Positions 8,101 to 35,098 are shown, numbered from the stretch's first letter. The stretch: 64,000 bases of DNA from an uncultured Candidatus Saccharibacteria bacterium (GCA_964609075.1 CAZSQP010000002.1:72235-136234), one strand, 5' to 3'. Made by a program: numbers and translations. The notes: generated by a model not told the origin, from the letters alone.

Positions 8101-8140
8101 TTTCTCTTTTAGTTTATTCTCTTTTTGCTACAATGGAGTA

Positions 8141-11730: not shown

Positions 11731-11789
11731 CTTTACTTTGTTTTTAAAAAGAGAGATAATAGAGTATATAAGGTTAATAAGTAATTATT

Positions 11790-12284: not shown

Positions 12285-12291
12285 TTTTTAG

Positions 12292-12323
12292 AAAATCAAC
12301 TCTTTTTAGGGTTGATTTTTTAT
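12292..12323 (+). terminator. rho-independent terminator
   Basis: aatcaac (12294-12300) pairs with gttgatt (12311-12317), followed by ttttatt. Confidence 0.7.
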
Positions 12324-12348
12324 TGGAAAAGTTATAGGATAGATTAAT

Positions 12349-13377: not shown

Positions 13378-13378
13378 T

Positions 13379-13690
13379 ATGTTAGCTGTAATAAAGACGG
13401 GAGGAAAGCAATATCTGGTTTCCCCCGGAGACAAAATTAAAATAGAGAAGATAGAAGGTAAAGAGGGTAAAGAAATTACCTTTAAAGAGGTTTTACTTTT
13501 AGAGAAGAATAAAAAGCTTGAGATAGGGGAGCCTAAAGTAAAGGGAGCCAAGGTAACAGGAGAGATTCTAAAGCAAGGTAAAAGGAATAAGGTAACAGTT
13601 TATAAATACAAGCCTAAGAAGCGTCAGAAGACAAAAAAGGGTCACAGGCAGCCCTTTACAGAGGTTGAGATCAAAAAGATGGAGATGTAA
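13379..13690 (+). CDS. rplU: 50S ribosomal protein L21
   Basis: MLAVIKTGGKQYLVSPGDKIKIEK... and a basic C-terminus (KPKKRQKTKKGHRQPFTEV). Confidence 0.9.
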   Translation: MLAVIKTGGKQYLVSPGDKIKIEKIEGKEGKEITFKEVLLLEKNKKLEIGEPKVKGAKVTGEILKQGKRNKVTVYKYKPKKRQKTKKGHRQPFTEVEIKKMEM

Positions 13691-13693
13691 AAT

Positions 13694-13720
13694 AAAGCCC
13701 CTAACGTTTAGGGGCTTTTT
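13694..13720. terminator. bidirectional rho-independent terminator
   Basis: gcccctaa (13697-13704) pairs with ttaggggc (13708-13715). A-run upstream and T-run downstream. It serves rplU (+) and the minus-strand small-gene pair. Confidence 0.8.
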
Positions 13721-13916
13721 GGGTGCTTGAATATCGAAGGGCCAAAGCCCATACGATATCCAGCACGAGAGCGATAGCTAGACCTCCGAAAGAGACCCAG
13801 CTGTCCTCTACAGGCTCTGGAGCTGTTCCTTGGAATAGGGGAATCCCTACGATGGTCATCCCCATAATAGCTCCAAAGAAAAGAATCCAGAAAAGACACT
13901 TCTCGTCCCTGTCCAT
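13701..13916 (-). CDS. small two-TM membrane protein (G+C-rich cassette)
   Basis: 71 aa, MDRDEKCLFWILFFGAIMGMTIVGIPLF...GGLAIALVLDIVWALAL. SD aaaggag lies 6-7 nt upstream and the stop sits inside the terminator hairpin. Confidence 0.55.
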   Translation of the reverse strand: MDRDEKCLFWILFFGAIMGMTIVGIPLFQGTAPEPVEDSWVSFGGLAIALVLDIVWALALRYSSTQKAPKR

Positions 13917-13958
13917 TCTTCGTCTCCTTTCTTTCCGTTGGCAGCGGGCAGAAAGGAT

Positions 13959-14114
13959 TTAGACAAAAGCTACAGCGATGGCTGCTCCCAGCAGAAGAGA
14001 GAGGCCGGTAATGATCCACCAGGCCATTCTCTTACTATAACTGGTAGCATGTCCCCTGTGCTTTCTTCGGGGACCTTGGTTCATCACATCTACTGCTTGT
14101 GCTTGGCTACGCAT
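13959..14114 (-). CDS. small basic protein with a C-terminal TM (51 aa; below the ORF-track cutoff)
   Basis: My translation is MRSQAQAVDVMNQGPRRKHRGHATSYSKRMAWWIITGLSLLLGAAIAVAFV. SD ggagg lies 5 nt upstream and a perfect sigma70-type promoter sits at 14149-14177. Confidence 0.45.
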   Translation of the reverse strand: MRSQAQAVDVMNQGPRRKHRGHATSYSKRMAWWIITGLSLLLGAAIAVAFV

Positions 14115-14148
14115 GACAACCTCCTTTATTAAAGTGCTTTTGATTACT

Positions 14149-14177
14149 ATTATACTATATTATTTTAGCTATGTCAA
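14149..14177 (-). promoter_or_regulatory. consensus sigma70-type promoter (minus strand)
   Basis: The minus strand reads TTGACA (14177-14172), a 17-nt spacer, then TATAAT (14154-14149). Confidence 0.7.
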
Positions 14178-14182
14178 TAGCA

Positions 14183-14211
14183 TTGCTGGAGATTTCTAAA
14201 AAAGGTATACT
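14183..14211 (+). promoter_or_regulatory. sigma70-type promoter for the triple-HTH gene
   Basis: TTGCTG (14183-14188), 17 nt, TATACT (14206-14211). It lies inside the ORF-track N-terminus, which supports the ATG 14252 start. Confidence 0.6.
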
Positions 14212-14251
14212 GTTTAAAAGAACCTTTAAAACAGAAGAAAGGGGAATAGCA

Positions 14252-21488: not shown

Positions 21489-22166
21489 ATGGCAAAGATA
21501 AAAGAAAAAGAAAAAGCAATAAAATTAAGGAGAAAAGGGCTTTCTTACAGAGAAATTTTAGAAGAAATTTCTGTATCTAAGTCGACGCTATCTTTATGGT
21601 TAAGAAGTGTTGGCTTAAGCAAAAAACAAAAGCAAAGATTAACGGAAAAGAAATTAGCAGCAGCAAAAAGAGGATGGGAAGCTTGCCGACAAAAAAGAAT
21701 TTTAATTACTAAGCAAATTAAAAATAAAGCTCGAGGAGAGATCGGAAAAATTAATAAAAAAGAGCTATGGTTAATAGGGGTTGCCCTTTATTGGGCTGAA
21801 GGAGATAAGGAGAGGAACGGAAGTTGCTTAGTAGGTTTAGGTAATTCAGACCCTTATTTAATACAGGTATTTTTAAAATGGCTTAGAGAAATATGCGAAA
21901 TTTCTGATGACGATATTTTTTTTAGAATATTCCTCCACGACAATAATAAAAGAAGACTAAAAGAAGTAAAAAAATATTGGTCACAAATTACGGGCTTTCC
22001 AATTACTGAATTTGATAGAATAACTTGGAAGAAGAATAAAATCAAAACTAAAAGAAAGAATATTGGTAAAAATTACTACGGATTGTTAAAGGTGTTTGTA
22101 AGAAAAAGCAGTAACTTTAATCGGAGGATTGAAGGATGGAAAGAAGGTATTTATAATGCCGGGTAG
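21489..22166 (+). CDS. HTH + LAGLIDADG-like (homing-endonuclease-type) protein
   Basis: N-terminal resolvase-type HTH (KGLSYREILEEISVSKSTLSLWLR), then LWLIGVALYWAEGDK and YLIQVFLKWL resembling a LAGLIDADG core. The last 10 nt overlap tRNA-Gln. Confidence 0.5.
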   Translation: MAKIKEKEKAIKLRRKGLSYREILEEISVSKSTLSLWLRSVGLSKKQKQRLTEKKLAAAKRGWEACRQKRILITKQIKNKARGEIGKINKKELWLIGVALYWAEGDKERNGSCLVGLGNSDPYLIQVFLKWLREICEISDDDIFFRIFLHDNNKRRLKEVKKYWSQITGFPITEFDRITWKKNKIKTKRKNIGKNYYGLLKVFVRKSSNFNRRIEGWKEGIYNAG

Positions 22167-22230
22167 TGTAATGGTAACACCCTAGATTTTGGCTCTAGTG
22201 ATCCTGGTTCGAGTCCAGGCCCGGCAGCCA
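22157..22230 (+). tRNA. tRNA-Gln (anticodon TTG), CCA encoded
   Basis: Hand-folded: acceptor TGCCGGG/CCCGGCA (U1-A72, typical of bacterial tRNA-Gln), D arm GTGT..ACAC, anticodon arm CTAGA-TTTTGGC-TCTAG, T arm CCTGG-TTCGAGT-CCAGG, discriminator G, CCA. Confidence 0.9.
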
Positions 22231-23865
22231 TCGTGCACGAATAGAGGCAATAGCCTCTATTTTTGCTTTATTTTGGGGCATTTTGGCTGGTTCTAACCCT
22301 ATGTATTCTTTTTCAAGAGCAGGATAGCCATTTCCTACCTCTGCAAACCACTCATTCGGTTCAATAGAGAGCTTTCCGTCTTTTATTATTGGCACTTTCC
22401 CTAATGCCATTGAAATTTCTTTCTTTAGTTCTAACCCACCCATCAAAAAGGCTTTTCTGGCGTAGGTGGCGAAGTTAAAGGTTCTTTCCGTTAGTTCCAG
22501 CCATCTTTCGGCTCGTGCTTCGGTTTCTCGCAGTTTTCCTTTCAACTGGCTAATTTTGGCTTGAAGGTCGTTTTTCTCTTTGATAAAAGTTTCGTCATCA
22601 ATCAACTGGCGGTATCTCATCTTGGTAAGTTCATCAAGTTCTTTTTGAGTTTCTACCAAAGTTTTGTGTTGCATTTCATAAACTTTAGTCCTGTCTTCAA
22701 TCTCTGTATCATTTTTCTTGTTTAGCCCTTCTAAAGCCCAGTTTAGAAATTCGGGGAGAATTGTGTATTTTTCAAGCTCTTTTTCAACCTGTAATTCCAG
22801 ATTGTCTTCTCTGACTACTTTTCTTTGCGTGCAATTTACTCGTCTTGTCCTTCTGGTGCAGTGATAATAGGTATATTCTTTAATTTCTTTCGTGCTTTTG
22901 ATAAGTTTCTTTTTTGTTTCGGCGGTATAAAGACAGCCGCACTCACCACACCTGATAAATCCAGTAAAAGCAAATTTGTGCGTTTTGGGTCTCGGTCTCC
23001 CTTTTCTGCCGAGAATTGTTTGCACTCGGTCATATTCCTCAAGAGTAATCATCGGCTCGTGCTTGCCTTCGTATTGCGTGCCGTAGTATTCAATAATCCC
23101 AGCATAAAAAACATTAGTGAAAATCTTGTAAATTCCGCTTCGGGATAGGGGCTTATCGCCATATCCCTTTTTCCTGAATTTTCTTGTTTTGAAACCCCAC
23201 TCATTATTGGCAATATCTAAAATCTTGGGCGGGGTGTAGTTGCCCGTAAGCATTAAATCCCACATTTTGCGGATAAGATTAAACCGCTCTGGGTCTTTGA
23301 TGATTGTTTTCTCTGCTTTGTCGTTTAGATAGCCGAGCGGGGCAAGATTGGGTTTCCATCCTTTTTGCAGTTTGCTTTCCGTGCCTCTTTTGACATTTTT
23401 TCTTAAATCCAAAATATACTGGTTAGCCATTCCGCTTTCAACATTAAAAAGTAGAACATTATCATCGGGAAGATACTGGCGGTCTATGGTTTGGATTGAC
23501 TTGAGTATTCCTTGCTGTAATAGCCAGCTTAACTTGCCGCTATCAATGGGGTTTCGGGTTAGTCGGTTTATTTGCCAGCATAAAATTCCGTCAGCCTCGC
23601 CGTCTTCAATCCGTTTTATCATTTCATCAAACAAAGGACGATTGTTTGGTTTCTTGGCTGTCTTTGCCTCTGTATAGGTTTTTTTAATATCCAAATTCAA
23701 ATCAGTGGCAAGCTGTTTTAGGCGATTGACTTGGTCGTCAATGGATTGCACTTGTCGGTCTTCGCTTTCCGATGATTTTCTGGCGTAAAGGAAGTATTTA
23801 ATTTTATTTACTTCTTGTCTCATATAACTCAAAGGGGCGGTCTGGTAGCCCAGTTGCTTTTCCAC
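22195..23865 (-). CDS. large serine recombinase (integrase)
   Basis: Resolvase-type N-terminus YARKSSESEDRQVQSIDDQ ... GILCWQINRLTRN, a recombinase domain, a zinc ribbon (CGECGCLYTAE...YYHC) and a coiled-coil. The ORF-track start is GTG; ATG 23823 (MRQEVNKIKYFLYARKSS) is an alternative. The last 11 codons are antisense tRNA-Gln sequence. Confidence 0.85.
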   Translation of the reverse strand: MEKQLGYQTAPLSYMRQEVNKIKYFLYARKSSESEDRQVQSIDDQVNRLKQLATDLNLDIKKTYTEAKTAKKPNNRPLFDEMIKRIEDGEADGILCWQINRLTRNPIDSGKLSWLLQQGILKSIQTIDRQYLPDDNVLLFNVESGMANQYILDLRKNVKRGTESKLQKGWKPNLAPLGYLNDKAEKTIIKDPERFNLIRKMWDLMLTGNYTPPKILDIANNEWGFKTRKFRKKGYGDKPLSRSGIYKIFTNVFYAGIIEYYGTQYEGKHEPMITLEEYDRVQTILGRKGRPRPKTHKFAFTGFIRCGECGCLYTAETKKKLIKSTKEIKEYTYYHCTRRTRRVNCTQRKVVREDNLELQVEKELEKYTILPEFLNWALEGLNKKNDTEIEDRTKVYEMQHKTLVETQKELDELTKMRYRQLIDDETFIKEKNDLQAKISQLKGKLRETEARAERWLELTERTFNFATYARKAFLMGGLELKKEISMALGKVPIIKDGKLSIEPNEWFAEVGNGYPALEKEYIGLEPAKMPQNKAKIEAIASIRARWLPGLDSNQDH

Positions 23866-23953
23866 GAGGGATTGGCTTCTGGCAAACCGCCCCTTAAAGG
23901 ACAGAAGCCGATAAAAAACTCGTGGATTTGTTGCAACTTTGGGCTACATCTAC

Positions 23954-23981
23954 ATTATAACGCTGTCTAAATTTTAAGCAA
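23954..23981 (-). promoter_or_regulatory. sigma70-type promoter for the recombinase gene
   Basis: The minus strand reads TTGCTT (23981-23976), 16 nt, TATAAT (23959-23954). Confidence 0.55.
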
Positions 23982-23998
23982 GCTCAATAAGGGGACAA

Positions 23999-24592
23999 CT
24001 ATTTTCCTAACATCATAACCATTTTTACCAAATCGTTATTTAATTTTTCATTCATTCTAATGACCCGTCTGTATTTTCTGGTCATTCTCCCATTATAGTA
24101 TTTTCTTTTTACTTCTTGTTCTGCTTTTTCTATGTCTGGGTAAGAAACTGAACAGCCTCTGAATTTACCACCTCTCAACTGGTCGGTGTAGCAAATATCG
24201 CCGCAGTGTCGGCAACCGAACCATTTGCCAATGCTGTAAATTACGCCAACCCGCCTGCCGCAGTATTGCCCATTCTTGGACAAAGGACATATAAACCAGT
24301 ATCTAACACCGCCGTAATTACAGGGAGTAGTCGTGAGGCTGACCTTATAATCCAAACTTTCTTTTTTACCGCTCCATTTGTCAGTGTGCGTGTATTGCAA
24401 TCTGATGTAATCGCCTTCGTCTCCGCCTATATTTACATTAAAGCCAATACTGCTTTCGTTGCCGCTTAATCCGTAAGTCCACTTGATACCGCCATATCTC
24501 CAACCACTCTCAAGATAGCCGTGCTTTTTGAGCCAAAAAATACTTAATCTATTGCTCCATTCTGCTTCTTGTTTTGCCATAATTTTTTTCAA
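23999..24592 (-). CDS. hypothetical Cys-rich (zinc-ribbon-like) protein
   Basis: 197 aa with CPLSKNGQYCGRRV...FGCRHCGDICY. The ORF-track start is TTG; ATG 24580 (MAKQEAEW) is an alternative. I cannot name a family. Confidence 0.6.
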   Translation of the reverse strand: MKKIMAKQEAEWSNRLSIFWLKKHGYLESGWRYGGIKWTYGLSGNESSIGFNVNIGGDEGDYIRLQYTHTDKWSGKKESLDYKVSLTTTPCNYGGVRYWFICPLSKNGQYCGRRVGVIYSIGKWFGCRHCGDICYTDQLRGGKFRGCSVSYPDIEKAEQEVKRKYYNGRMTRKYRRVIRMNEKLNNDLVKMVMMLGK

Positions 24593-24736
24593 AAACCCGC
24601 CGAAATCATTAGAGATTGTTAGAGGTTATTTTTGAAGTTGGGGATTAAATTTCCGCTTAAATAAAGGCAAATTTCTTATTTTATTGACCTTGAATAAAAC
24701 TCCATTTAATTCATTATTTTTGCGAAACGAACCCAG

Positions 24737-25273
24737 CTATTCTTTAACCCCAGAAACATCAACATCAATAGCCAGTGGAGCTGGTGGTTTTTCTCCCGCA
24801 CGGGCGGCTTGTATCCGTTGTAATTCGTGAAGGGCTTTATAAATACTTCTTTCAATAGATGTTTCATAGCGGAGTAATTTTTCCATATCATCATTAACAA
24901 TCATCGCTTTAATTTTCTTTTTCTTCTTTTGACTTTCTGGTTCTTCGTCTAAACCAAAACTAATTTCTTTATAATTTTTCCGCCACTCCATTGCGTTCTT
25001 TTCAACCTCTAAAGTCCTTCTAAGACGCCAGAAATTAGCGACAATTCTGTCAGCAAGCAACATTTCAAGCTCTCCTACTGGTTTCATTTCATTTCTTAGT
25101 CGTTTTCCAAGTTCAACAAGGCTCTGTTCGTCCTCTTTTTCCAATAATACCTCTTTACTCAACAGCCCGTGTTTTAAGGCATTGTATTTGCTTATTTCTT
25201 TGCCTTTATCTGTTTTTACCCCGCCGAGTTTGGCATTTTGGCGGTTAGCTTCTATTTGTTGTTGTGTCGTCAT
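24737..25273 (-). CDS. hypothetical protein
   Basis: 178 aa with N-terminal ANRQNAKLGGVKTDKGKEISKYNALKHGLLSK. It overlaps the upstream primase gene by 4 nt, so they form an operon. Confidence 0.6.
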   Translation of the reverse strand: MTTQQQIEANRQNAKLGGVKTDKGKEISKYNALKHGLLSKEVLLEKEDEQSLVELGKRLRNEMKPVGELEMLLADRIVANFWRLRRTLEVEKNAMEWRKNYKEISFGLDEEPESQKKKKKIKAMIVNDDMEKLLRYETSIERSIYKALHELQRIQAARAGEKPPAPLAIDVDVSGVKE

Positions 25274-27450
25274 AAGTTTGTATTATTTACCCCACCCCTC
25301 AACTCACTATTGTTTTTCTCTTTAGAGATAGTGAGCGAGGCGGTAGGATAGATTAACATTTTTCTTTTATCGCTTGGGTCTTGCTCTTGCATTATCAAGC
25401 CAGCAGTTTCCAGCATTGGAATGATTTGTTGCCGCAACTGCCAATCAGCGATAAATCGTCCATAAACCTGATAATGCTTTTGGATTATATCTTGACGGCT
25501 CAATCCCAACTCCCCAGTGATTTCTTCAAATCCTTCAGCCCTGTTTTTGTTTTTATCATCCCAAGCAGTTAAAATAACTTCCTGATAGAGATGGTAAATA
25601 TAGGGCGGCAGGTTAAGTTCTTGGCTTTCAGAGATTGCATTCCAAATTTTGAACGCTTCTTCAATGTCCTCATCGCTTGCCACAATAACCAAGCCGTCGT
25701 TTTTTCTGAACCACAGATTTAACAAAGCAAAAGATTTTATCAAAGAGATAAGCCGCCCGATGTCTCTTGAATGTCTGGGCTTGAGCATTTTGTTTTTCTT
25801 GAAAAATCTTTCTTCAATTTTCTCTGGCGAGCCGATTTTAATTTCTTTGACATTTTCTTGCTTAATTGCTCGTATCCTTTCTTTCAATAGTTTCCTTTCG
25901 GGGTTATCGTCCAGCCACTTTTGATAGGTGTCAGCGTCAGTTTCCTTTTTGATTTTCTCGTGGATTGCTTCCCTGATTTTTTCTTGGTTTGTCTCTGGGC
26001 TAAGCAATAAAAACCTTGTTGCTTCCTGTTCGTCAATTTTTAACCCAGCAGTGCAGAAAATTACTGACGGATAACCCCTTAACAAGACATTTTTAGTCTT
26101 TAATCCGAATTTCTGCGTTTTATCAGTGATTTTCAGTGATATTTCTTTTTTGTCGTGAGAAAGCAGAGGTCTTAGCCGTTCCAAGAGTTGAGTGTGCGGC
26201 TGGTCAAGAAAAATTAAAACCTTTCTGGACAAATCAACCAAATATCCTTTTTTCTCTTTTTGGTATTCTCCTATGTCGTGAAAAAAGGCGGTGGGAGAAC
26301 AATAGCCAATTTCAATAATGTCTTCTTCGGGGAACAGCCGAGCGATTTCGGTGGGGATATAAGACTTGCCAGTTGATGACGGAGCGTTGAAGCTGATATT
26401 AAACTGGGAGTTTTCTGTATAAGCAGAGAGTTCACATAAAAAAGTTATCAATTTATTTTCCTCGTCTTTTTTGATGGTCAGACCCAGTGTTTTGATGAGC
26501 TCTGATGAGGAGAGTGATTTGAATTGCGAGGTATCAATTTTTTCTGGATACTCTTTTGCGTATTTACCAAATAAATCATCGGGATTGCCGTTGAGTTTTA
26601 CAAAGTAATCGGTTATGTCGCCGCCTTCGCCGACTTCCTCTGGCAGTGTGATGATGTAGGTCTCATTTCCACCATTTTCCACCATTTTTGCCACTCGTTC
26701 AGCTCCTTTCTTGCCCGCCTCGTCATTGTCAAAGCAAATATAGATTTTGCTAACATTTGCTAACCTTTTGCACCACTCTTGCTTAAAGGTCATTGCTCCG
26801 TGCGTGGAAGTGATGGCTGGTATTCCTTTTGATAATAAAATCAATCTATCAAACTCGCCTTCGCAGGTTATAATTTTATTAGTGGCGGTTTTGAGCGTTT
26901 CCCAGCCATAGATTTGAGCTTCAATTCCTCTGGGGTAGGTTATTTTTTCATCGCCTTCATTCGGGTCTTGTCTTAGCTTAAAAAACACAAAATTCCCACC
27001 AATATCTTGAATGGGAATAGTAATCCACCATTTGCCGTAAAACTTGCCCCAACCGAGCTTAAAATCGCTTACAAGGGCGTCCGTAATGCCTCTGGCGTGC
27101 AGATATTGGCGAATATGGTCTGGAATGGCTTGATGACAGGTTTCTACCAGAGAAGTGTCAAATTTCGGATATTTTCGGATATTTTTCGTGGATTTTCGTG
27201 GATTTAGAGCAATGTCGTCTATGCTGTCGCCAAGATGTTCGGCAAGCGTTATGATGTTGCCTTTCTCCCCGCATTTCTTGCAATCGTATTGTCCAGTTTC
27301 AGTATCAAAGTAAAGATGTTTTTCATCGCTTCTGCTGTCGTCATCGCAGTTGTTAAATAGGCAACGGGTTATCAGTTCTCCATTTTGTTCTTTGAAAGGA
27401 ATGCCTTTGCGGGTTAGGTATTCTTTAATTGTAATGGTTTGTAATTCCAT
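25270..27450 (-). CDS. primase (zinc finger + TOPRIM) fused to a P-loop ATPase and a C-terminal winged-helix
   Basis: Cys cluster RCLFNNCDD...YDCKKCGEKG, TOPRIM ITCEGEFDRL / CFDNDEAGKKG, Walker A NAPSSTGKSY, Walker-B-like VLIFLDQPH, and a C-terminal wHTH-like region (LETAGLIMQEQDPSDKRKMLIYPT). Confidence 0.8.
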   Translation of the reverse strand: MELQTITIKEYLTRKGIPFKEQNGELITRCLFNNCDDDSRSDEKHLYFDTETGQYDCKKCGEKGNIITLAEHLGDSIDDIALNPRKSTKNIRKYPKFDTSLVETCHQAIPDHIRQYLHARGITDALVSDFKLGWGKFYGKWWITIPIQDIGGNFVFFKLRQDPNEGDEKITYPRGIEAQIYGWETLKTATNKIITCEGEFDRLILLSKGIPAITSTHGAMTFKQEWCKRLANVSKIYICFDNDEAGKKGAERVAKMVENGGNETYIITLPEEVGEGGDITDYFVKLNGNPDDLFGKYAKEYPEKIDTSQFKSLSSSELIKTLGLTIKKDEENKLITFLCELSAYTENSQFNISFNAPSSTGKSYIPTEIARLFPEEDIIEIGYCSPTAFFHDIGEYQKEKKGYLVDLSRKVLIFLDQPHTQLLERLRPLLSHDKKEISLKITDKTQKFGLKTKNVLLRGYPSVIFCTAGLKIDEQEATRFLLLSPETNQEKIREAIHEKIKKETDADTYQKWLDDNPERKLLKERIRAIKQENVKEIKIGSPEKIEERFFKKNKMLKPRHSRDIGRLISLIKSFALLNLWFRKNDGLVIVASDEDIEEAFKIWNAISESQELNLPPYIYHLYQEVILTAWDDKNKNRAEGFEEITGELGLSRQDIIQKHYQVYGRFIADWQLRQQIIPMLETAGLIMQEQDPSDKRKMLIYPTASLTISKEKNNSELRGGVNNTNL

Positions 27451-27472
27451 AGTTTTGTAATGTTAGGTTTTG

Positions 27473-27670
27473 TTAGGTTTTTAAGTCGCCAGTTTGTCGG
27501 CGGCGTTCCTGTAATTTTTGGTATTCGGCTTCGGTCATTGGTTTGTAAATCAACTCAACAAGTCGGATGAGTTTTGCACCCTGCTCATACGCTTCCTCTC
27601 GGCTTATTTCTTTGCCGAAGCGATTTTTGTAAAGCGTTTGGTATTTTTTTATTTGCTCATCCGACAACAT
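27473..27670 (-). CDS. hypothetical small protein
   Basis: 65-aa helical ORF, 22 nt upstream of the primase start, in the same operon. Confidence 0.5.
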   Translation of the reverse strand: MLSDEQIKKYQTLYKNRFGKEISREEAYEQGAKLIRLVELIYKPMTEAEYQKLQERRRQTGDLKT

Positions 27671-27674
27671 AGTT

Positions 27675-27968
27675 TTATTCGGAGTAAATTCGGTTCTTCA
27701 ACATTTTCACATTGTCAAAGAACGCCCGTGCTTTAACTTCCAAGCGGTCTGCCCAGTAGTCATCAACGACCTTTTCAATGCCGATTGCTCGGCGAAAGAT
27801 GAACTGGACTTTTCGGGGGTTGGCTTTGTCTAATGAGACAAGCTCAAAACCCGCACTTATCAATGCGGCTGAACACCCCAAATCAAAGGTGTAAAAATAG
27901 TTTGTTTGGTCATCTAAAGGAATGTATTGATATTCCTCTGGCTGACCCTTTTTTAATGGTTTGGTCAT
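27675..27968 (-). CDS. hypothetical protein (resembles the family I recall as DUF5659)
   Basis: 97 aa. TFDLGCSAALISAGFELVSLDKANPRKVQFIFRR ... KMLKNRIY. The family assignment is from memory only. Confidence 0.5.
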   Translation of the reverse strand: MTKPLKKGQPEEYQYIPLDDQTNYFYTFDLGCSAALISAGFELVSLDKANPRKVQFIFRRAIGIEKVVDDYWADRLEVKARAFFDNVKMLKNRIYSE

Positions 27969-28043
27969 ATAATTTTTGGTTAAGTTAATAATTAGTTTGC
28001 GACCCTCTACTAATAGATGGCGAATTTCACGCTTTGTCGTAGG

Positions 28044-28078
28044 AAAACAAAAAACTCCCCATTTTGTGAGGAGTTTTC
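28044..28078 (-). terminator. rho-independent terminator of the 696-aa gene
   Basis: The minus strand reads aaaactcctc acaaaat ggggagtttt followed by ttgtttt. Confidence 0.7.
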
Positions 28079-28114
28079 CGTAGGAGATTTATTAAAAGTT
28101 AAAGGTTAATTTCG

Positions 28115-30205
28115 CTACTGGTATTCGTCGTAGACTTCTGGGGTTTGTCTTTTATATTCTTCTTCTATTCCTAAATCATCTTTGTCTTTATTGGCATTAG
28201 CTTTTTCTTTTTTGTCTGGCGGCGGTATCAGAGTAATTTTAATTTTATAAGAATTGCCGCTTTTTTCTGTTGATGAGTGATATGGGTAAAAGGGGTCATA
28301 ATCAAGTAAGAAGTAGTTTTGAAGTGCTTTTGCCAGCAATTCTTTTTGTTTTTTATATTTATCTCTTGCTTGTGCGTCTTTGATTGTCAATTCACCATTG
28401 ACCTGTGCCAGCACTTTCATAAATGTCCACGCTTCGCTTGGATTTGGGTTTTTACCTCGCCCGACCATTCCCATTTCTTTGTAGTCAGCATTATGTTTGA
28501 ATTGTTTTACTTGGATAAAAACATTTTCGTCATCCTCAAATTTAATAGTGAAATTTTCCCATTTCGTTCCTGCTGGCAATTTATAAGGAAATTGATTTTT
28601 TCTTTCCTTTTTTTTGGTTTGAGCGATTGCTTTTAGTCCGTCTTGCAATCCTTCTACTTCCATTCTGCCGCCAACGATTTGGATTTTTTGTATCCGTTCG
28701 TGAGTATGGGATATTTTTGGGTCATATTCCCCAAGTAGTTTTTCGGTAGCTAATTTTTTAAGTGCGGGTATTTTAGATTTGACGAGCTTCGCTTTTATAA
28801 AAACATTGTCTTTGTCTGTCCATTCTTGTTTATCGTTGCTTAGCTCTTTTATGGTAAAAAATCCCTCTTTCTCTAATGCCAGCATTGTCCTTAAAACATT
28901 GATATTCGGGTCTCGTATCTCGTTAAATTTGATAACCAGTATTTCGTTTTCAAATTGATTGTAAAGGTTTGCGATATAGTTGAGCAATACTTCCCTTTGC
29001 TTTTTGTAGGCATAATAATTATGAGAGACGCCTCGCAAATAAGAGGGTGTCTCAAGGTGTTTGGTATCGGGATAAAATTCTTTTACCGCCTCAATCTTTT
29101 CTGCGTTGACTTTATTGGCGATAAATTCACTGATTTCTTCGTCAACATCTTTTTTTAATCTTTTTTCATCCAATATCTCAATATCAAAACCATCATCAGC
29201 TTCTACCTTATGCGGATTATTATCTAAATCTCTGATTAAGTTCCAATTAAAGGCAATTTCTTGATGAAAGCGAGGGTCGGTTTCAATTAAAATATCCTCT
29301 GGGGTAGTATTAGCACCGAAGAAAATAATATCGGTAATAAATAAATCCCAAAGAGAATAACAAATTTGTTCTATTGTGTTGTTGTTAAATGATAATTCGG
29401 TTATTGGGTGAGGTAGGTCGTCTCTCCAAGTTTCAACTAAAATTTTCTTTTTTAGATACAAATCTAAATCATTGTTTTGCCCAACCTCTTTACTTATTTT
29501 TTTGACTTTGTAATTTTTTAGAGTAAAGCCATCATATTTTAATAACTTATTAAATTTGTCTTCGTATGTTTTGGCGATTTCCTCGTTTCCATTGTGCATT
29601 AAAGGATGGCTTGCTTCTTCAATAATCTTAAAGAGGATTTCTTGATTTTTTGGATTTGGCGAGGTGGCAAGTGCTATAAAGACATCATAGACCATCCGCC
29701 ATTTTGTTTGAGGATATTCAATGAGTTTTTTATCAACTCCACAATCGGTTAAAAAATTTATAAGATTTGTTCCTGTTTCTAAATTACCGATTTCTCTGGC
29801 AATAAGTTCCAGAGACTTCGGCTTTATAACTGATTGTGAAATTTTGGTTTCTGGAACAGCATTTTTATTTTCCGAGTAGCTACTCCCGCTTTCGTAGAGA
29901 CGATAAAGTTCATCAAATTTGGATTGGCGAATTGCTAAGAGATACGCCGTTGGCGGTGCAAATAAATTATCATCCACAAAAAATCCAGTTGGTTCTAAGT
30001 CCAAAGCCTTCCATTCTTTTAATTTATTGAGTAGTTTCCTTTGAGCTTCAGCCGACGGCAAGTTATCATCGGTCTTTCTTGAGTATTTCGGTGGTTTTCT
30101 TAAAGTAAACTCTACCTTTTCTCCTTTAGGGGTGGAGAGCTGTTCTTTTCTTATTTCTTGCAAAATCCACCAAATCTCTTGATTAAATTTTTCCTCTGGG
30201 GTCAT
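28115..30205 (-). CDS. large orphan protein (696 aa), function unknown
   Basis: A long uninterrupted ORF with its own terminator. I could find no catalytic or nucleotide-binding motif by eye. The C-terminal tail is Lys- and acid-rich. Confidence 0.7.
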   Translation of the reverse strand: MTPEEKFNQEIWWILQEIRKEQLSTPKGEKVEFTLRKPPKYSRKTDDNLPSAEAQRKLLNKLKEWKALDLEPTGFFVDDNLFAPPTAYLLAIRQSKFDELYRLYESGSSYSENKNAVPETKISQSVIKPKSLELIAREIGNLETGTNLINFLTDCGVDKKLIEYPQTKWRMVYDVFIALATSPNPKNQEILFKIIEEASHPLMHNGNEEIAKTYEDKFNKLLKYDGFTLKNYKVKKISKEVGQNNDLDLYLKKKILVETWRDDLPHPITELSFNNNTIEQICYSLWDLFITDIIFFGANTTPEDILIETDPRFHQEIAFNWNLIRDLDNNPHKVEADDGFDIEILDEKRLKKDVDEEISEFIANKVNAEKIEAVKEFYPDTKHLETPSYLRGVSHNYYAYKKQREVLLNYIANLYNQFENEILVIKFNEIRDPNINVLRTMLALEKEGFFTIKELSNDKQEWTDKDNVFIKAKLVKSKIPALKKLATEKLLGEYDPKISHTHERIQKIQIVGGRMEVEGLQDGLKAIAQTKKKERKNQFPYKLPAGTKWENFTIKFEDDENVFIQVKQFKHNADYKEMGMVGRGKNPNPSEAWTFMKVLAQVNGELTIKDAQARDKYKKQKELLAKALQNYFLLDYDPFYPYHSSTEKSGNSYKIKITLIPPPDKKEKANANKDKDDLGIEEEYKRQTPEVYDEYQ

Positions 30206-30234
30206 AGTAATTTTTGGTAATAATCATTTAATGT

Positions 30235-30263
30235 TGCAGATATTCTTTCTCTGCTGTATAATA
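30235..30263 (+). promoter_or_regulatory. sigma70-type promoter for the HTH gene (near-leaderless transcript)
   Basis: TTGCAG (30235-30240), 17 nt, TATAAT (30258-30263). The ATG at 30274 lies only 10 nt after the -10 element. Confidence 0.6.
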
Positions 30264-30273
30264 ATGGTATCAA

Positions 30274-30495
30274 ATGTTAAGTAAAAAATCAATGACAGAA
30301 ACAGCGAAAAACAAAGAAGAAATACCAGAATTGCTCACCCTTCAAGAAGCGTGTGATATTTTGAAGTGCCACCCTAACACTTTACGCCAGTGGGACAGGA
30401 AAGGCATTTTGGTTGCTGTTCGTTTTGGCGAAAGAAAAGACAGGCGTTATCGCAAAGAGGATATTTTGAAGTTATTAAACCAAAAGAAAAGATGA
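30274..30495 (+). CDS. excisionase/MerR-type HTH DNA-binding protein (candidate recombination directionality factor or regulator)
   Basis: LLTLQEACDILKCHPNTLRQWDRKGILVAVRFGERKDRRYRKEDI matches the HTH_17/excisionase pattern. Confidence 0.7.
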   Translation: MLSKKSMTETAKNKEEIPELLTLQEACDILKCHPNTLRQWDRKGILVAVRFGERKDRRYRKEDILKLLNQKKR

Positions 30496-30517
30496 TATAA
30501 ACCATTAACAATTTAAT

Positions 30518-30699
30518 TGCCTAACCCTCGTTGAGGTATGGCATTAAAAAACCTACCACAGGATAGAGAGCTCGTCGTCAGAGCACCTGTGGTAGGTCAT
30601 ATCCCGAAAGGGGTATGGGTGGAGCAATCCATCGCTGGCGGCGAGCTTTGTGGTTTTACCGCCAGAGGCATAAATTAAATAACAAAACCTACCACAGGT
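30518..30699 (+). promoter_or_regulatory. hairpin-dense structured leader upstream of mod (candidate RNA switch, or ori/iteron region)
   Basis: Perfect 12-bp hairpin acctaccacagg (30551-30562) / cctgtggtaggt (30586-30597). GAAA-loop hairpin at 30598-30617, GCAA-loop hairpin at 30618-30633, and ctggcgg/ccgccag at 30635-30665. A second direct copy of aaaacctaccacagg lies at 30684-30698, ending 1 nt before the ATG. Confidence 0.55.
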
Positions 30700-32562
30700 A
30701 TGCCAAAAAAATTACAATTACAATCAATTGAAAAAGCCAAAGGCAGACCAATGCTTCAATGGGCAGGTAAAAAGCCTTTGGACAAAATAGAATACTATCC
30801 AGCCCAAGAAAAAGAAGTTTATGGCGACAAAAACTCCAAAGATTTTAATAAACTTTTCTGGGGCGACAACCTTCAAGTTTTAGCCCATCTCTTAAAAGAA
30901 TATAGGGGCGAGATTGATTTAATTTATATTGACCCGCCTTTTGATAGCAAAGCCGAGTATGTGAAAAAAGTAAAAATCAGGGGTGAAAAAATAGAAGGCG
31001 AACAGCATAGTTTGTTAGAAGAAAAACAATATACTGACATCTGGGAGAAAGATGAGTATTTGCAGTTTATGTATGAGCGGCTTTTAATTATGCGTGAACT
31101 TCTTGCTGATACGGGGAGTATTTATTTACATTGCGATTGGCACAGGGGGGCGTTTTTAAGGATGATAATGGATGAAGTTTTTGGCGAGGGAAATTTCAAA
31201 AATGAAATTGTTTGGCATTATATGACTTATCAGGGGCAGGTTGAAAAATACTTCCCTCGTAAGCACGACCATATTCTTTTTTATACCAAAACTAAAGAGT
31301 ATGACTTTAAGTTGTTAAAAGATAAGGAATTTGAAAAGAATATAGACTATAAACGCTGGCATAGATATTTGATAAATGGAAATGAAATCAGGGGTAATAA
31401 CTATCCAAAAGATGACACTCGTTTTGATGTATTTATAAATAAATGGCGTGAAAAAAATAAAAGAGAGCCGACTAAAGATGATGTAATTTATCGTCTGGAA
31501 GGATACACAATTGATAGTGTCTGGAACATAAAAGCCGAAGACCCCAAAAGTTTAACAAGAACGGGCTATCCAACCCAAAAGCCAGCAGAGCTTATAGAAA
31601 GAATTATTGAAGCGTCATCAAAAGAGGGCGATATTGTAGCTGATTTTTTTGTTGGCTCTGGCACTACTCCAGCCGTTGCTCAAAAACTCGGCAGACGCTG
31701 GATTGCCTGCGATATTAACTTGGGAGCAATACAAACTACCGCCAAACGGCTTAATCAAATCATTCAAAAGCAATCAAAAGAAAAAGCTAAAGATTTTAAG
31801 GGCATACACGCTTTCAAAATCTACAATGTCAACGATTACGATATTTTCAAAAATGAACTGGAAGCAAAAGAAATCGTAATGGAGATGTATGGTGTAGAGC
31901 CGATAAAGCGAAGTTATTTTGACGGCGTTCTGGATAACAACTTTGTAAAAGTAATGCCGATGAACCGAGTATTGAATAAGTTGGATATTAAGACGGCGTT
32001 GAAAAATGTTGAAGACAAGATTGACACTTTCTCGGTTAAGAAAAAATCAAAATCTGGCGAGCCAGTTTATGAGGAAGGCGTTTTGATTATTTGTTCTGGA
32101 ATGGAGCTTGATGTGTCAGATTATTTGAAGAAAGAAAACAAAACAGGCGTGAAAGTAGAAATCCGAGATATTTTAACTGACAAGAAAAACCTCATTTTCA
32201 AAAAGAAGCCCGAAGCGAAGATTGAAGTGAAAGCTAAAGACAAGAAGCTGTCAGTTGAACTCAAAGAGTTTTATTCACCAATTTTGATGAGAAAGTTAGA
32301 AATTGAAAACGCCAGAACACTTAAAAAAGAGTATCAAGCCAAAGTAAAAGATTTTAAGCAAATCATAGATAGCGTGGCTATTGATATTGATTATGACGGC
32401 AAACTCTTTAATGCCGAAATTACTGATTTGCCGAGTAAAAAAGAAATAATCAAAGGCAAATACGATTGGGATTACAAGCAAAAGGGCAAATATGCCGTAG
32501 CTGTAAAAATCGTTGATGTGCTTGGTGAGGAATACTTTGAAACCTTTGAGGTATCAGCATAA
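30700..32562 (+). CDS. mod: type III restriction-modification Mod subunit (beta-class N6-A/N4-C DNA methyltransferase)
   Basis: Motif IV DLIYIDPPFDS lies N-terminal to motif I DIVADFFVGSGTTPAVAQKLGRRWIACDIN (beta-class order). A Res-type helicase-nuclease gene follows immediately. Confidence 0.85.
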   Translation: MPKKLQLQSIEKAKGRPMLQWAGKKPLDKIEYYPAQEKEVYGDKNSKDFNKLFWGDNLQVLAHLLKEYRGEIDLIYIDPPFDSKAEYVKKVKIRGEKIEGEQHSLLEEKQYTDIWEKDEYLQFMYERLLIMRELLADTGSIYLHCDWHRGAFLRMIMDEVFGEGNFKNEIVWHYMTYQGQVEKYFPRKHDHILFYTKTKEYDFKLLKDKEFEKNIDYKRWHRYLINGNEIRGNNYPKDDTRFDVFINKWREKNKREPTKDDVIYRLEGYTIDSVWNIKAEDPKSLTRTGYPTQKPAELIERIIEASSKEGDIVADFFVGSGTTPAVAQKLGRRWIACDINLGAIQTTAKRLNQIIQKQSKEKAKDFKGIHAFKIYNVNDYDIFKNELEAKEIVMEMYGVEPIKRSYFDGVLDNNFVKVMPMNRVLNKLDIKTALKNVEDKIDTFSVKKKSKSGEPVYEEGVLIICSGMELDVSDYLKKENKTGVKVEIRDILTDKKNLIFKKKPEAKIEVKAKDKKLSVELKEFYSPILMRKLEIENARTLKKEYQAKVKDFKQIIDSVAIDIDYDGKLFNAEITDLPSKKEIIKGKYDWDYKQKGKYAVAVKIVDVLGEEYFETFEVSA

Positions 32563-32566
32563 CTTT

Positions 32567-35098
32567 ATGGAAAATCCTTTTTTACAACATATCCAGCAGA
32601 AAGTCGCTCTCTGGCGAGACGGCAATTATAAGGGTGCAGAAAAAGAAACGCTGAATATCTTGACCCACATCAAACGAGTGGGCTTTTTGCATAAACCACA
32701 GGTAGAAGCTCTGGAAACTTATATTTACTTAAAAGAGGTTGTCGGCAACAAGTCGTCTTTGGAAGTGTTTAGGTCGCTTTTTGAAAATAAAAAAGATATG
32801 CTTCTTGGTTTAGGCATTTCTAAAGAACAAGCATTTGATTTAATGGACAACGAAGAAAAGATTGCCGAATTGATGGAAGACCGCTTTGGCGTTTCCGATT
32901 ACCCTAATCAAGTTTACGCTCTCACAATGGGAGCGGGCAAAACGATTTTAATGGCAGTGATGATGTTGTATGATTTTGTCCTTTCGTTTTATCACCCAGA
33001 AGACAAGCGATTTGCTAAAAACGCTTTGGTGTTTGCTCCCGACACGACAATTATTGAGAGCTTGAAAGAAATAAAAACCTTTGATTATACACGGGTAATC
33101 CCGAAAGAATATCAAAACATTCTTTTGAACATTAAATATCATTATCTTGAAGATGTCGCCACGCCTTTGTCGCCAATCGGCAATTACAATGTTATTATTT
33201 CAAACTCCCAGAAAATCATCTTAAAGACCCAGCGAAATCACAATAATACTCAACGATTATTTTCCGATTGGCAGTATATGACAAAGCGAGAGATAGAAAA
33301 CAGGCGTTTGCAAGCCATAAGGCAATTAACAGATTTGGTCGTTTTTGTAGATGAAGCCCATCATTCTTACGGCAAGACGCTGGAAGGCACGCTAAAGAAA
33401 ACCCGCCAGACCATTAACTATATCCATCAAGAGGGCAAGACGCCTGTCGTTGGCGTGATAAATCTTACTGGCACGCCGTATGTAAATAATAAAATGATTG
33501 CTGATGTTGTTTGTCATTTTGGATTAAAACAGGGCATTGAAAAAGGCATTTTGAAGCAGGTAAGATTTTTTGAATATAGCAAAGTGAGAACAGAAAAGTT
33601 TATTGAAGATGTGGTAGATAAGTTCTGGAGTGAATACGGAGAAAATCGGCTTGAAGGACGCTTGCCAAAGATAGCTTTTTACTCTGCCAGCATTGATGAT
33701 TTACAGAAGGATTTGAGACCAAAACTGGAAAAGATTTTAGCCCAGCGAAAAATCGCTCTTGATAAGATTTTAGAATATCACACCGAAGCCGAAGAAAATA
33801 AAGATGAGTTTATTGTCGTAGACACAATTGATAGCAGGAAGCAGTTTATTCTGCTCGTTGGTAAAGGAACAGAGGGTTGGAATTGTCGGTCGCTTGTTGC
33901 CTGTGCTTTATACAGGAGACCGAGAAGTGCTATTTTTGTTTTGCAATCTTCAACTCGTTGTTTGCGGAGCATTGGCGACAATTCAACGCTGGCTTCAATT
34001 TTCCTTTCCGAAGAAAACTATCGCATTTTAGACAAAGAACTTAGAAATAACTTTGCCACTGATATTGAAGAATTGTCAGCCCAAGACCAGAAATCTATTG
34101 AGCACACTCTTAAAATAGAAAAAAAGAAGAAATTAAAAATCAGAAAGACCCTAAAGGAAATCTTGGCGGTTCAAAATCAAGATTTAGATAAAATTAAAAT
34201 TGATTTCAAAACATTCAATCCAGAGAATTATTTATCTTTTATTGCCGAAGGCGGGATATTTTTGGATGAAAGCAAAGAAGCTGGCTATAAAGAAGCGAGA
34301 ATAAAGAAAGAAGTGAGAGAGATGGGCGATTTTACTTTTTACGAGATTATTGAAATTATCAACCGCTATACTCATTTGTCTTGTTTGGCTATTGAGCAGA
34401 TTTTGGAAAACAATGAATTATCAAAAGAAAACATAATCAAAAGAGTGAATAAAAATCCAGCATTTTTATTGTTTATTACGCAGAACATTTTAGCTGGGGC
34501 TTATCAATATCAGGAGAAGACCGAAACCATTGAAGAAGAACTGGAGCTGGCGAAACTATATCCCTTCAAAATCAGCATTGAACAGGGCAGAAATATCCTC
34601 GTGATTTACAAAGAGCAAATGGAGAAGGCATACGGCAAGAGCCGTTTAGGATTTCACATTAACCCTTATAATTTTGATAGCTCTGACGAAAAAGACCTGT
34701 TTAAGTATTTGCGGGATGTGTTGGATAAAGACGAGGCAATTGTTGATGTTTATTTTACAGGGGGAGCAACCGACCCTACCCACAATGATTTCTATTTTGA
34801 GTATTACAGCCCAGAGAATAAACGGATTGCCAGATATTTCCCAGATTTTTTGGTTGAGACGACAAAAGGCAGGTTTTTAGTTGTTGAGGTGAAGTCCAAC
34901 CGAGAAAAAGAGGGCTACGAGAAAAACAAGCAGGAATACAATGGCAAAGTAGAAAACCTTTTTAATGAGGTTTTTGCCAAAGAAATCGGTTTTAAGGAGT
35001 TCCAGCGAGCAAACAAAAATTTTGAGTATCGCATTATCTTTGACGCCTCACTTCAAAAACGCCAGCAGGAATTATTGGAAAGTATAAGAAAAATTTGA
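32567..35098 (+). CDS. res: type III restriction-modification Res subunit (SF2 helicase + PD-(D/E)xK nuclease)
   Basis: Walker A ALTMGAGKTILMA, DEAH box VVFVDEAHHSYG, motif III LTGTP, and C-terminal nuclease PDFLVET...FLVVEVKS. I prefer ATG 32567 (MENPFLQH), 5 nt after the mod stop, to the ORF-track start 32513. Confidence 0.85.
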   Translation: MENPFLQHIQQKVALWRDGNYKGAEKETLNILTHIKRVGFLHKPQVEALETYIYLKEVVGNKSSLEVFRSLFENKKDMLLGLGISKEQAFDLMDNEEKIAELMEDRFGVSDYPNQVYALTMGAGKTILMAVMMLYDFVLSFYHPEDKRFAKNALVFAPDTTIIESLKEIKTFDYTRVIPKEYQNILLNIKYHYLEDVATPLSPIGNYNVIISNSQKIILKTQRNHNNTQRLFSDWQYMTKREIENRRLQAIRQLTDLVVFVDEAHHSYGKTLEGTLKKTRQTINYIHQEGKTPVVGVINLTGTPYVNNKMIADVVCHFGLKQGIEKGILKQVRFFEYSKVRTEKFIEDVVDKFWSEYGENRLEGRLPKIAFYSASIDDLQKDLRPKLEKILAQRKIALDKILEYHTEAEENKDEFIVVDTIDSRKQFILLVGKGTEGWNCRSLVACALYRRPRSAIFVLQSSTRCLRSIGDNSTLASIFLSEENYRILDKELRNNFATDIEELSAQDQKSIEHTLKIEKKKKLKIRKTLKEILAVQNQDLDKIKIDFKTFNPENYLSFIAEGGIFLDESKEAGYKEARIKKEVREMGDFTFYEIIEIINRYTHLSCLAIEQILENNELSKENIIKRVNKNPAFLLFITQNILAGAYQYQEKTETIEEELELAKLYPFKISIEQGRNILVIYKEQMEKAYGKSRLGFHINPYNFDSSDEKDLFKYLRDVLDKDEAIVDVYFTGGATDPTHNDFYFEYYSPENKRIARYFPDFLVETTKGRFLVVEVKSNREKEGYEKNKQEYNGKVENLFNEVFAKEIGFKEFQRANKNFEYRIIFDASLQKRQQELLESIRKI

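Follow-up and report, generated by a model that had tools for sequence, protein, structure and literature searches.

A LOOT RNA leader with one antisense arm and two alternative partners as a putative start-codon switch of a type III restriction-modification operon in a Candidatus Saccharibacteria mobile element

The window analyzed in this study is a 64,000-nt stretch of DNA from an uncultured Candidatus Saccharibacteria bacterium (GCA_964609075.1, CAZSQP010000002.1:72235-136234), and all coordinates are positions in this window on the + strand unless stated otherwise. Its region 22157-35098 is an integrative element that lies beside tRNA-Gln and carries a type III restriction-modification (R-M) cargo. 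The order is tRNA-Gln, a large serine recombinase, a Toprim primase-like gene, a DUF5659 gene, an unknown gene of 696 aa, a small helix-turn-helix (HTH) gene of the HTH_17/MerR type, an RNA of the LOOT family, mod and res, and the Pfam content of mod and res is that of a predicted type III R-M pair. The subject of this work is the 204-nt gap between the HTH gene and mod (30496-30699), which contains the LOOT RNA and three related strands named b, b′ and b2. LOOT loci with b2 are referred to as class B and stand-alone LOOTs without b2 as class A. The features of the gap and its flanking genes are as follows.

30274-30495, +: HTH_17/MerR-type gene, 73 aa (Pfam HTH_17, E = 3.9e-12)
30508-30518, +: 5′ box ACAATTTAATT, conserved, at which stand-alone LOOT RNAs probably begin
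30518-30543, +: hairpin H1, with outer stem UGCC/GGCA, internal loop CCUAAC...GUAUGG and inner stem CCUC/GAGG (LOOT model positions 1-33)
30551-30562, +: b, the 5′ arm of hairpin H2 (ACCTACCACAGG / ACCUACCACAGG), the "anti-antisense" copy
30567-30581, +: c, in the apex of H2 (AGAGCUCGUCGUCAG), partner of c′
30585-30597, +: b′, the 3′ arm of H2 (ACCUGUGGUAGGU; CCTGTGGTAGGT at 30586-30597), the sole antisense copy, complementary to b and to b2
30598-30617, +: H3, an 8-bp hairpin with a GAAA tetraloop
30618-30633, +: H4, a 6-bp hairpin with a GCAA tetraloop, where the Rfam model ends
30635-30657, +: c′ (CUGGCGGCGAGCUUU, 30635-30649) and a U-rich tract (UUUGUGGUUUU); c′ pairs with c or d
30659-30665, +: d (CCGCCAG), the 3′ strand of the 7-bp stem H5 (with CTGGCGG, 30635-30641), alternative partner of c′
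30667-30672, +: e (GGCAUA), paired with UAUGCC (30699-30704) across the start codon in the minimum free energy (MFE) fold
30684-30699, +: b2, the start-proximal copy (AAAACCUACCACAGGU), with 13 nt complementary to b′; the direct copy AAAACCTACCACAGG (30684-30698) ends 1 nt short of the mod ATG
30700-32562, +: mod, an N6_N4 DNA methyltransferase of 620 aa (PF01555, E = 5.8e-51), with its start codon in e′
32567-35098, +: res, the type III restriction subunit in the same operon (ResIII, PF04851; start taken from the gene call in locus L187)

A preliminary description of this DNA, made from the sequence alone, had reported most of these hairpins, stems and repeat copies, and all of those were recovered at the same positions by reading 30300-30900 and with a repeat finder, including the second direct copy that stops 1 nt before the ATG at 30700. 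It had overlooked H1 (30518-30543) and the 5′ box (30508-30518). The repeat finder gave b:b′ as a perfect 12-bp stem closing a 23-nt apex, a direct repeat of 20 nt (90% identical) that covers both b-type copies, and a 13-nt perfect complementarity between 30585-30597 and 30687-30699. At up to 2 mismatches the 13-mer has only three sites within the 64 kb, against 0.38 expected. The + strand of the region folds at −80.3 kcal/mol (z = −6.3), with none of 200 shuffles as good, and the − strand of the same region gives z = −3.2.

The check with cmscan that had been proposed for these hairpins identified them as a LOOT RNA (RF03000) at 30518-30633, with 85.7 bits against a gathering cutoff of 46.4 (E = 2.8e-16); the match spans the full model, positions 1-121 of 121, and was repeated in a scan of the whole window. 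Four consecutive hairpins, the last two capped by GNRA loops, are present, as in the LOOT motif. LOOT is one of the 224 motifs described by Weinberg et al. in 2017 (PMC5737381), appears in Rfam papers as a figure example and a table entry (PMC7779021, PMC11701678), and was listed by Rivas in 2020 as an oddity with 28 "cross-covariations" (PMC7657543). The hypervariable H2 described below fits those cross-covariations. In the literature searched, LOOT had only database and methods mentions, and no functional work was found. Whereas the published family is a metagenomic small RNA (sRNA) candidate only, several features lie beyond the Rfam model and, to our knowledge, have not been described: the 5′ box, the c:c′ helix, H5, b2, the link to methyltransferases, the host range in the Candidate Phyla Radiation (CPR) and the three-strand switch.

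Relatives of the leader were collected by pattern scans. A first pattern, H1 followed by an A-run, gave 19 viral matches with one true LOOT and was abandoned. The pattern that was then used joins the 5′ box to the H1 consensus, and the sample is biased towards that box. It returned 41 loci in reference genomes, 29 of them labelled as Patescibacteria/CPR lineages, and 118 metagenomic matches, and an Rfam re-scan of 17 further loci found LOOT above threshold in all 17. After duplicate removal there were 142 loci, with a clear H2 stem in 132 distinct LOOT loci. A second scan independent of the box added four LOOTs, three of which have the b2 arrangement, and left ACAAYT as the only general part of the 5′ box. 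The box is common to the window, L016 and L027 (two viral-contig copies). BLAST of the leader against annotated phages and plasmids gave no match.

The evidence on which our interpretation rests is the comparison of b, b′ and b2 across these loci, in each of which the reverse complement of the H2 3′ arm was compared with the 220 nt downstream. An exact b2 match of 9-13 nt on the same strand is present in 37 of the 132 distinct LOOT loci, and all 37 matches are found 66-98 nt downstream of H2, with an ATG following after 0-3 nt, whereas none of 650 non-cognate pairs of arm and locus reaches 9 nt, the longest match among them being 8 nt. The 37 loci contain about 18 different arm sequences. The three copies thus vary together while b2 always abuts the ATG, which supports the earlier proposal that the leader acts at the RNA level, with one antisense copy and two alternative partners. 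The arms of H2 are hypervariable (98 alleles in 118 LOOTs) and are 56% identical where the rest of the RNA is 83% identical. Unrelated b/b′/b2 triples are even found beside near-identical HTH genes and mod N-termini, as in the window, L148, L168 and L073. At positions where b:b′ has a wobble pair, b2 is Watson-Crick with b′ in 6 of 7 cases, and in 9 loci b2 lengthens the helix past b by 1-2 bp. Selection has therefore acted on the pairing of b′ with b2 and not on a mere copy of b. Family-wide, b:b′ is 98% Watson-Crick (1262 Watson-Crick to 21 G·U pairs), and about 21% of c:c′ pairs are wobbles; it is the most variable helix that avoids wobble. The comparative evidence is the decisive support for a non-chance origin of the elements.

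The preliminary description had called for the energies of the two pairings to be compared, and they proved to be nearly the same. The MFE fold of the window leader (30508-30730) has −81.3 kcal/mol and contains b:b′ and the 7-bp stem; with b′:b2 enforced the value is −79.2 kcal/mol, with H3, H4 and H5 in one multiloop. Among 31 leaders the median difference between the states is +2.9 kcal/mol, and the b′:b2 fold is itself the MFE in 11. Taken as duplexes, b:b′ has a mean energy of −20.4 kcal/mol and b2:b′ one of −19.8 kcal/mol. All these energies are from models of nested structures, and within the limits of such prediction the near-equal stabilities have the look of a bistable element. The fixed spacing of b2 and the b′:b2 multiloop that would enclose H3, H4 and H5 in a constrained fold fit an intramolecular design.

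The conservation of the LOOT core as a structure was examined in an alignment of 79 sequences. In this alignment 85.8% of the cells are paired, compared with 68.4% in shuffles, and the covariation score is 0.499 compared with 0.199, with none of 500 shuffles as high. Helices 1 and 2, both in H1, are 94-96% paired with compensatory changes, and helix 6, in H3, is 97% paired with covariation at all 8 pairs. MAFFT puts the hypervariable H2 out of register, and helix 4 appears only 65% paired; b:b′ and b′:b2 were analyzed locus by locus with non-cognate controls and not by alignment columns. Despite this problem of register, every locus has a perfect H2 stem of 9-13 bp. The internal loop of H1, CCUAA(C/A)...(U/C)AUGG (30520-30525 with 30537-30541), agrees with the classical GAAA-tetraloop receptor CCUAAG...UAUGG at 9 of its 11 nt; across the 79 LOOTs the loop does not vary except at two positions, which co-vary (C with U, A with C). 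The loop of H3 (30606-30609) is GAAA in almost all LOOTs. This receptor-like invariant loop, together with the near-constant GAAA, suggests a tertiary contact between H3 and H1; the likeness of H1 to the 11-nt receptor is our own reading.

Beyond the Rfam model, a second long-range helix is formed by c and c′. In the window it has 15 bp including 3 G·U pairs (30567-30581 with 30635-30649), and helices of 9-17 bp are found at this place in nearly all loci. RNAalifold picks c:c′ on the 79-sequence alignment, where it is helix 5 and 87% paired, with 14 of the 15 pairs changing on both sides. The wobble pairs are strand specific (239 U·G with the U in c, against 49 G·U), and the constraint on c:c′ is therefore one on the + strand RNA. 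Since c:c′ crosses b:b′, it would form either a pseudoknot with b:b′ or an alternative to it; the linkers around the two helices have medians of 6 and 4 nt, and c:c′ overlaps a small apical hairpin of the Rfam model. The 7-bp stem CTGGCGG/CCGCCAG described earlier is also present, as H5, in which c′ pairs with d instead of c. Its description as a simple stem was incomplete, as its 5′ strand has a second and longer partner in the apex of the 12-bp hairpin (the 15 bp of 30567-30581 with 30635-30649), so that c:c′ competes with H5. The pairing of c′ with d covaries in other loci, for example as CTCGTGG/CCACGAG, TAGCGGG/CCCGCTA and GCTGGCGGGGAG/TTTTCTGCCAGC. In nearly all loci c′ is followed by CUUUnUGUU. 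In this tract (30647-30655 in the window) nUG is nearly always AUG, GUG or UUG, 5-7 nt after the GGAG-like end of c′, and in the window a GUG at 30650 opens a 7-codon open reading frame (ORF) that ends at 30671-30673, making a leader peptide possible.

The start codon of mod has a weak stem of its own. An e:e′ stem of at least 6 bp, in which CAUA pairs with the AUG, was found in 11 of 31 class B loci, including the window, against 29 of 237 controls, and its flanks covary (GACAUA/UAUGUC, GUCAUAG/CUAUGAC). It had been noted that mod has no obvious Shine-Dalgarno (SD) sequence. This is true yet ordinary here, for an SD-like motif precedes only 12 of the 45 larger ORFs in the window, and none of the 31 class B genes. 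Because the class B genes lack an SD and the host rarely uses one, accessibility of the start site should dominate initiation. The genome of the window has 36.3% GC and few SD sequences, which fits a CPR-type organism that initiates mostly without SD.

On this basis we favor, as the probable explanation, a cis-acting bistable LOOT leader of the mod-res operon, in which b′ is predicted to pair either with b, leaving the start free, or with b2, occluding it. The element would comprise the LOOT core (H1, H2, H3 with GAAA, H4 with its GNRA loop) followed by c′, d and b2, with b′ and c′ each having two partners, and it is probably co-transcribed with the upstream HTH gene. During transcription the core would fold first, with b:b′ formed. 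With b:b′ and c′:d in place, the A-rich start region would be unstructured and open to ribosomes, held by the weak CAU/AUG stem only, and Mod and then Res would be translated. If b′ were released, it could pair with b2 in a 13-bp helix over positions −13 to −1, stacked on the start codon, which would block initiation at mod and presumably repress it, and Res would be lowered too through operon polarity or coupling. Candidate triggers would be unfolding of the core, a ligand or protein, 5′ decay through b, RNase III, or the choice between c:c′ and c′:d. The association with methyltransferase genes on a mobile element suggests that such a switch would serve to limit or time the expression of methyltransferase and restriction enzyme of a transferable R-M cassette, and it is the sole support for the delay of restriction on entry into a new cell that the preliminary description had proposed.

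Several points weigh against this interpretation. In about 70% of the LOOT loci no b2 is found within 250 nt, which makes the b′/b2 device an addition in one subfamily rather than what LOOT does in general. The helix b:b′ forms first and is a perfect 12-bp helix, with a toehold of just 1 nt for b2, and spontaneous switching is consequently expected to be slow; no trigger for switching was found in this analysis. The nested-fold energies ignore a possible pseudoknot of b:b′ with c:c′. A helix ending at −1 could in principle even activate translation by opening the CAU/AUG stem. In a simple consensus scan of 30100-30800, LOOT was not preceded by any canonical promoter, and the one terminator-like site (30632-30644) is weak. 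Finally, in L162 a b2-like site stands on another transcript, which suggests that action in trans is possible.

On a wider proposal, the LOOT RNAs of CPR bacteria and of their mobile elements would be programmable riboregulators, with a conserved, tertiary-folded core as the scaffold or sensor and the nearly wobble-free, hypervariable H2 as an "address" for the start of one potentially toxic DNA enzyme gene (a methyltransferase, an R-M system or a nuclease), usually in cis and sometimes, as perhaps in L162, in trans. We put this forward tentatively and consider it possible, though somewhat doubtful. If it were true, many orthogonal pairs of LOOT and gene could share a genome and travel as cassettes, and LOOT would govern which of methyltransferase and nuclease is expressed first, or at what relative level, after horizontal transfer.

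It could also be proposed that the core is the sensor of a riboswitch-like or protein-binding leader, which detects a ligand, ion, temperature or protein and uses c/c′/d and b′/b2 as expression platforms. This would be a refinement of the bistable-leader reading and would supply its trigger. The conserved core with two GNRA loops and a receptor-like internal loop in H1, and the two alternative partners of c′, speak for such a leader. In class A, moreover, an ORF of at least 40 aa starts no more than 17 nt after c′ in 32 of 86 loci, with c′ providing a GGAG at SD distance, 5-8 nt before the ATG, and other loci place the SD next to d. ON and OFF wirings would both occur, as in riboswitch classes. 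In many stand-alone loci (L027, L028, L049, L058, L077, L136, L141, L152 and L176) the next gene starts 4-7 nt after c′ and the sole GGAG is within c′; since c′ carries the only GGAG, c:c′ would mask the SD, and LOOT may be a cis leader rather than a free sRNA in such stand-alone loci. Overall, LOOT has the appearance of an sRNA or regulatory leader to which several expression platforms are attached. However, a riboswitch aptamer would be expected beside genes of one pathway, and the genes downstream of LOOT are heterogeneous: DUF805, zinc-ribbon and other small membrane proteins after class A c′, and elsewhere unknowns, DNA methyltransferases and nucleases. The gene context suggests no ligand, and no binding pocket could be defined with the tools used. 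We regard a sensor leader as rather unlikely.

Another explanation is that LOOT is a trans-acting antisense sRNA, made separately, about 150 nt long and ending at c:c′ and the U tract, whose b′ pairs with a mod mRNA made from its own promoter, the adjacency of the two being that of a linked sRNA-target pair. RF03000 carries the Rfam type sRNA, and a canonical −10 box ends at a fixed distance, 6-7 nt, before ACAATTT or the 5′ box in 59 of 85 class A loci. The GC-rich c:c′ helix followed by CUUUnUGUU in nearly all loci resembles a terminator with its tail, and c:c′ is part of the MFE fold of the truncated RNA 30508-30657. Hypervariable arms would suit an address code. In L162, LOOT (14090-14214, +) is divergent from a − strand operon of Fic (12876-13940), mod (10633-12855) and res (7947-10628), and the start of that mod, 1.2 kb away, reads UUAAAACCAUCCAAGAAUAUG, which is complementary to the b′ of that LOOT and has typical b2 flanks. 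This is a single example, though, and one 10-nt match is expected by chance, so that only the flanks and the location lend it credit. A free sRNA would also be at odds with the position of b2, which is fixed at 66-98 nt from H2 on the same strand in 37 of 37 loci, and with the class B LOOTs, which mostly lack a −10 box of their own (7 of 31 have one), abut the HTH gene and look co-transcribed. In addition, b′ is enclosed in a perfect stem instead of being exposed in a loop, and class A arms show no enrichment of matches elsewhere in the fetched loci (24 observed and about 21 expected, a comparison of low power over at most 14 kb; with an ATG filter, 0.30 against 0.17 matches per class A locus). 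Considering these points together, we judge action as a separate sRNA unlikely.

The start-proximal copy might also be a relic without function, left by a partial tandem duplication of the 5′ part of LOOT (GGCAU-AAAA-b). The flanks of b2 and b are indeed alike: both copies are preceded by GGCAU and have an A-rich prefix and an AUA-like suffix. A relic would be expected to decay, yet in about 18 alleles b2 is still perfectly complementary to b′ over 9-13 nt, follows b′ instead of b where there are wobble pairs, and keeps a constant position at the ATG, which makes this explanation very improbable. A target-site duplication of an inserted element was rejected as well, as it leaves b′ unexplained and class A has b:b′ without b2.

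Explanations at the DNA level appear extremely unlikely. The 12-mers would be operators of the HTH protein, iterons or an origin for the primase (the alternative raised in the preliminary description), or recognition sites through which the methyltransferase would exert methylation feedback. HTH and Toprim primase genes are nearby, and b:b′ is a perfect inverted repeat with 98% Watson-Crick pairs across the family, so that the arms alone are compatible with a DNA palindrome. HTH operators are excluded by near-identical HTH proteins (69 of 73 residues, with an identical recognition region) beside completely different arms. Methyltransferase recognition sites are excluded as well, since one arm allele can precede unrelated enzymes: the arm CCGTGCAAGG stands before a glycosyltransferase, an FkbM methyltransferase, a type IIG-like enzyme and a type III mod. 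The arm allele ACTGTTCAGG is likewise found in four loci (L033, L072, L115 and L120). The pair of window and L148 is uninformative on this point, as the central region of mod differs between them. Iterons and an origin fail because there are two direct copies and one inverted copy only, in a covarying RNA, and because arms differ between elements whose backbones are 84-96% identical. The arms are also within an RNA family with strand-specific wobbles and GNRA loops, and b2 is Watson-Crick with b′ where b has a wobble.

There is next to no probability that 30538-30678 encodes the 46-aa protein considered in the preliminary description, for although the ORF exists and was annotated by an automatic gene caller, its ATG is the invariant AUGG of H1, the frame is not conserved (read from that ATG in 118 homologous LOOTs, it stays open for a median of 12.5 aa, and for fewer than 20 aa in 73 of them), hairpin length differences are not multiples of three, and substitutions keep base pairs and not codons. 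The gene call was made in the source assembly (Logan SRR15425350; L187 3265-3405), has no Pfam match, and is probably a false call inside a structured RNA.

Three-strand translational switches are known from the SD-sequestering platforms of riboswitches and from the tac/fbi and ucb/dcb refolding of hok mRNA. In common with these, the proposed LOOT leader has one strand with two exclusive partners, one of them in the start region, near-isoenergetic states, and an order of co-transcriptional folding that would set the initial state. It differs in that the competing helix belongs to an independently conserved RNA domain with a predicted tertiary structure, and in that the competing sequences are hypervariable between close relatives. 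Synthetic toehold switches, in which the start is sequestered by default and opened by an external trigger RNA, also have a programmable helix of about 12 nt by the start codon and many orthogonal variants on one scaffold. In the LOOT leader, by contrast, the start is probably accessible in the default fold, and the RNA carries its own "trigger" strand.

R-M systems are known to be regulated by C (controller) proteins, autoregulating methyltransferases and cis-antisense RNAs, for example in EcoRI and Eco29kI. The situation here is similar in that the balance or timing of methyltransferase and nuclease in a transferable cassette would be at stake, and a small HTH gene lies directly upstream as in C-protein systems. 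However, control would be translational, by an intramolecular RNA switch rather than a promoter switch; the HTH protein is of MerR/HTH_17 type and not Xre type and does not read the repeats; and LOOT is not transcribed antisense to its target. Binding of the 12-mers by the HTH protein, as a C protein would bind its repeats, is not indicated, in an analysis confined to the 12-mers.

Since 2017 LOOT has been an orphan metagenomic RNA without host or function. The present analysis gives it a CPR host range and an extended structure (c:c′ and the 5′ box), and suggests a first plausible job, the gating of translation of R-M genes on CPR mobile elements. For one subfamily it offers a mechanism that can be tested by mutation, in which three strands would control the start site of methyltransferase genes in R-M systems. 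This may represent a new, purely RNA-based regulation of R-M in a large and poorly understood branch of bacteria with few SD sequences, and the roughly 100 natural helix alleles on one scaffold are a ready library of what would be orthogonal translational switches.

The genes behind b2 are usually DNA methyltransferases of three Pfam families, namely N6_N4_Mtase (including type III mod and one Mrr_cat fusion), D12/Dam, and N6_Mtase with HSDR_N. A VRR_NUC nuclease, a PMT_2 glycosyltransferase, an FkbM methyltransferase and small unknown proteins are also found there. In L196 a b2-like copy (AAAACCGUCCAAAC) precedes the ATG of the VRR_NUC gene (L196:2856-3398, − strand) and a second one (AAAUCCGUCCAAC) follows that ATG directly; each is complementary to the 3′ arm of H2 in the neighboring LOOT. 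The backbone of the element recurs at 77-96% identity in several metagenomic contigs (L148, L105, L168, L173, L100 and L150), with other R-M cargo behind LOOT. In about 25 loci, most of them class B, LOOT is preceded at 9-20 nt by the end of a homologue of the HTH gene. In L071 a group I intron (RF00028, 60.2 bits; 9429-9632, − strand) lies a few kb from the LOOT-mod cassette.

About nine first codons, MxKKLQLQS (AAAAAAUUACAAUUACAAUC, 30700-30726 in the window), are common at the nucleotide level to two subfamilies of N6_N4 methyltransferases and occur in 14 of 31 class B ORFs; loci with this start are L033, L045, L071, L073, L106, L115, L120, L128, L138, L139, L148, L168 and L185. It seems that the mobile LOOT module extends into the coding region, or that this A/U-rich repeat is part of the RNA element. 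Further downstream, the middle of mod (31222-31554) has no BLAST match in L148, whose remaining mod-res sequence is 83-86% identical, and this part is probably an exchanged target-recognition domain.

Two other pairings or likenesses were noticed in the window. The 5′ box could pair with the AU-rich spacer AAUUAAAU (30673-30680), a pairing that by eye is not conserved in other class B loci and was rejected. The 25 nt before the ATG of the Toprim gene (27451-27475, − strand) read UAACAAAACCUAACAUUACAAAACU and have UAACAAAACCUA in common with the b2 module before mod; just 5 nt of this motif could pair with b′, and the likeness may be a coincidence or a common leader motif.

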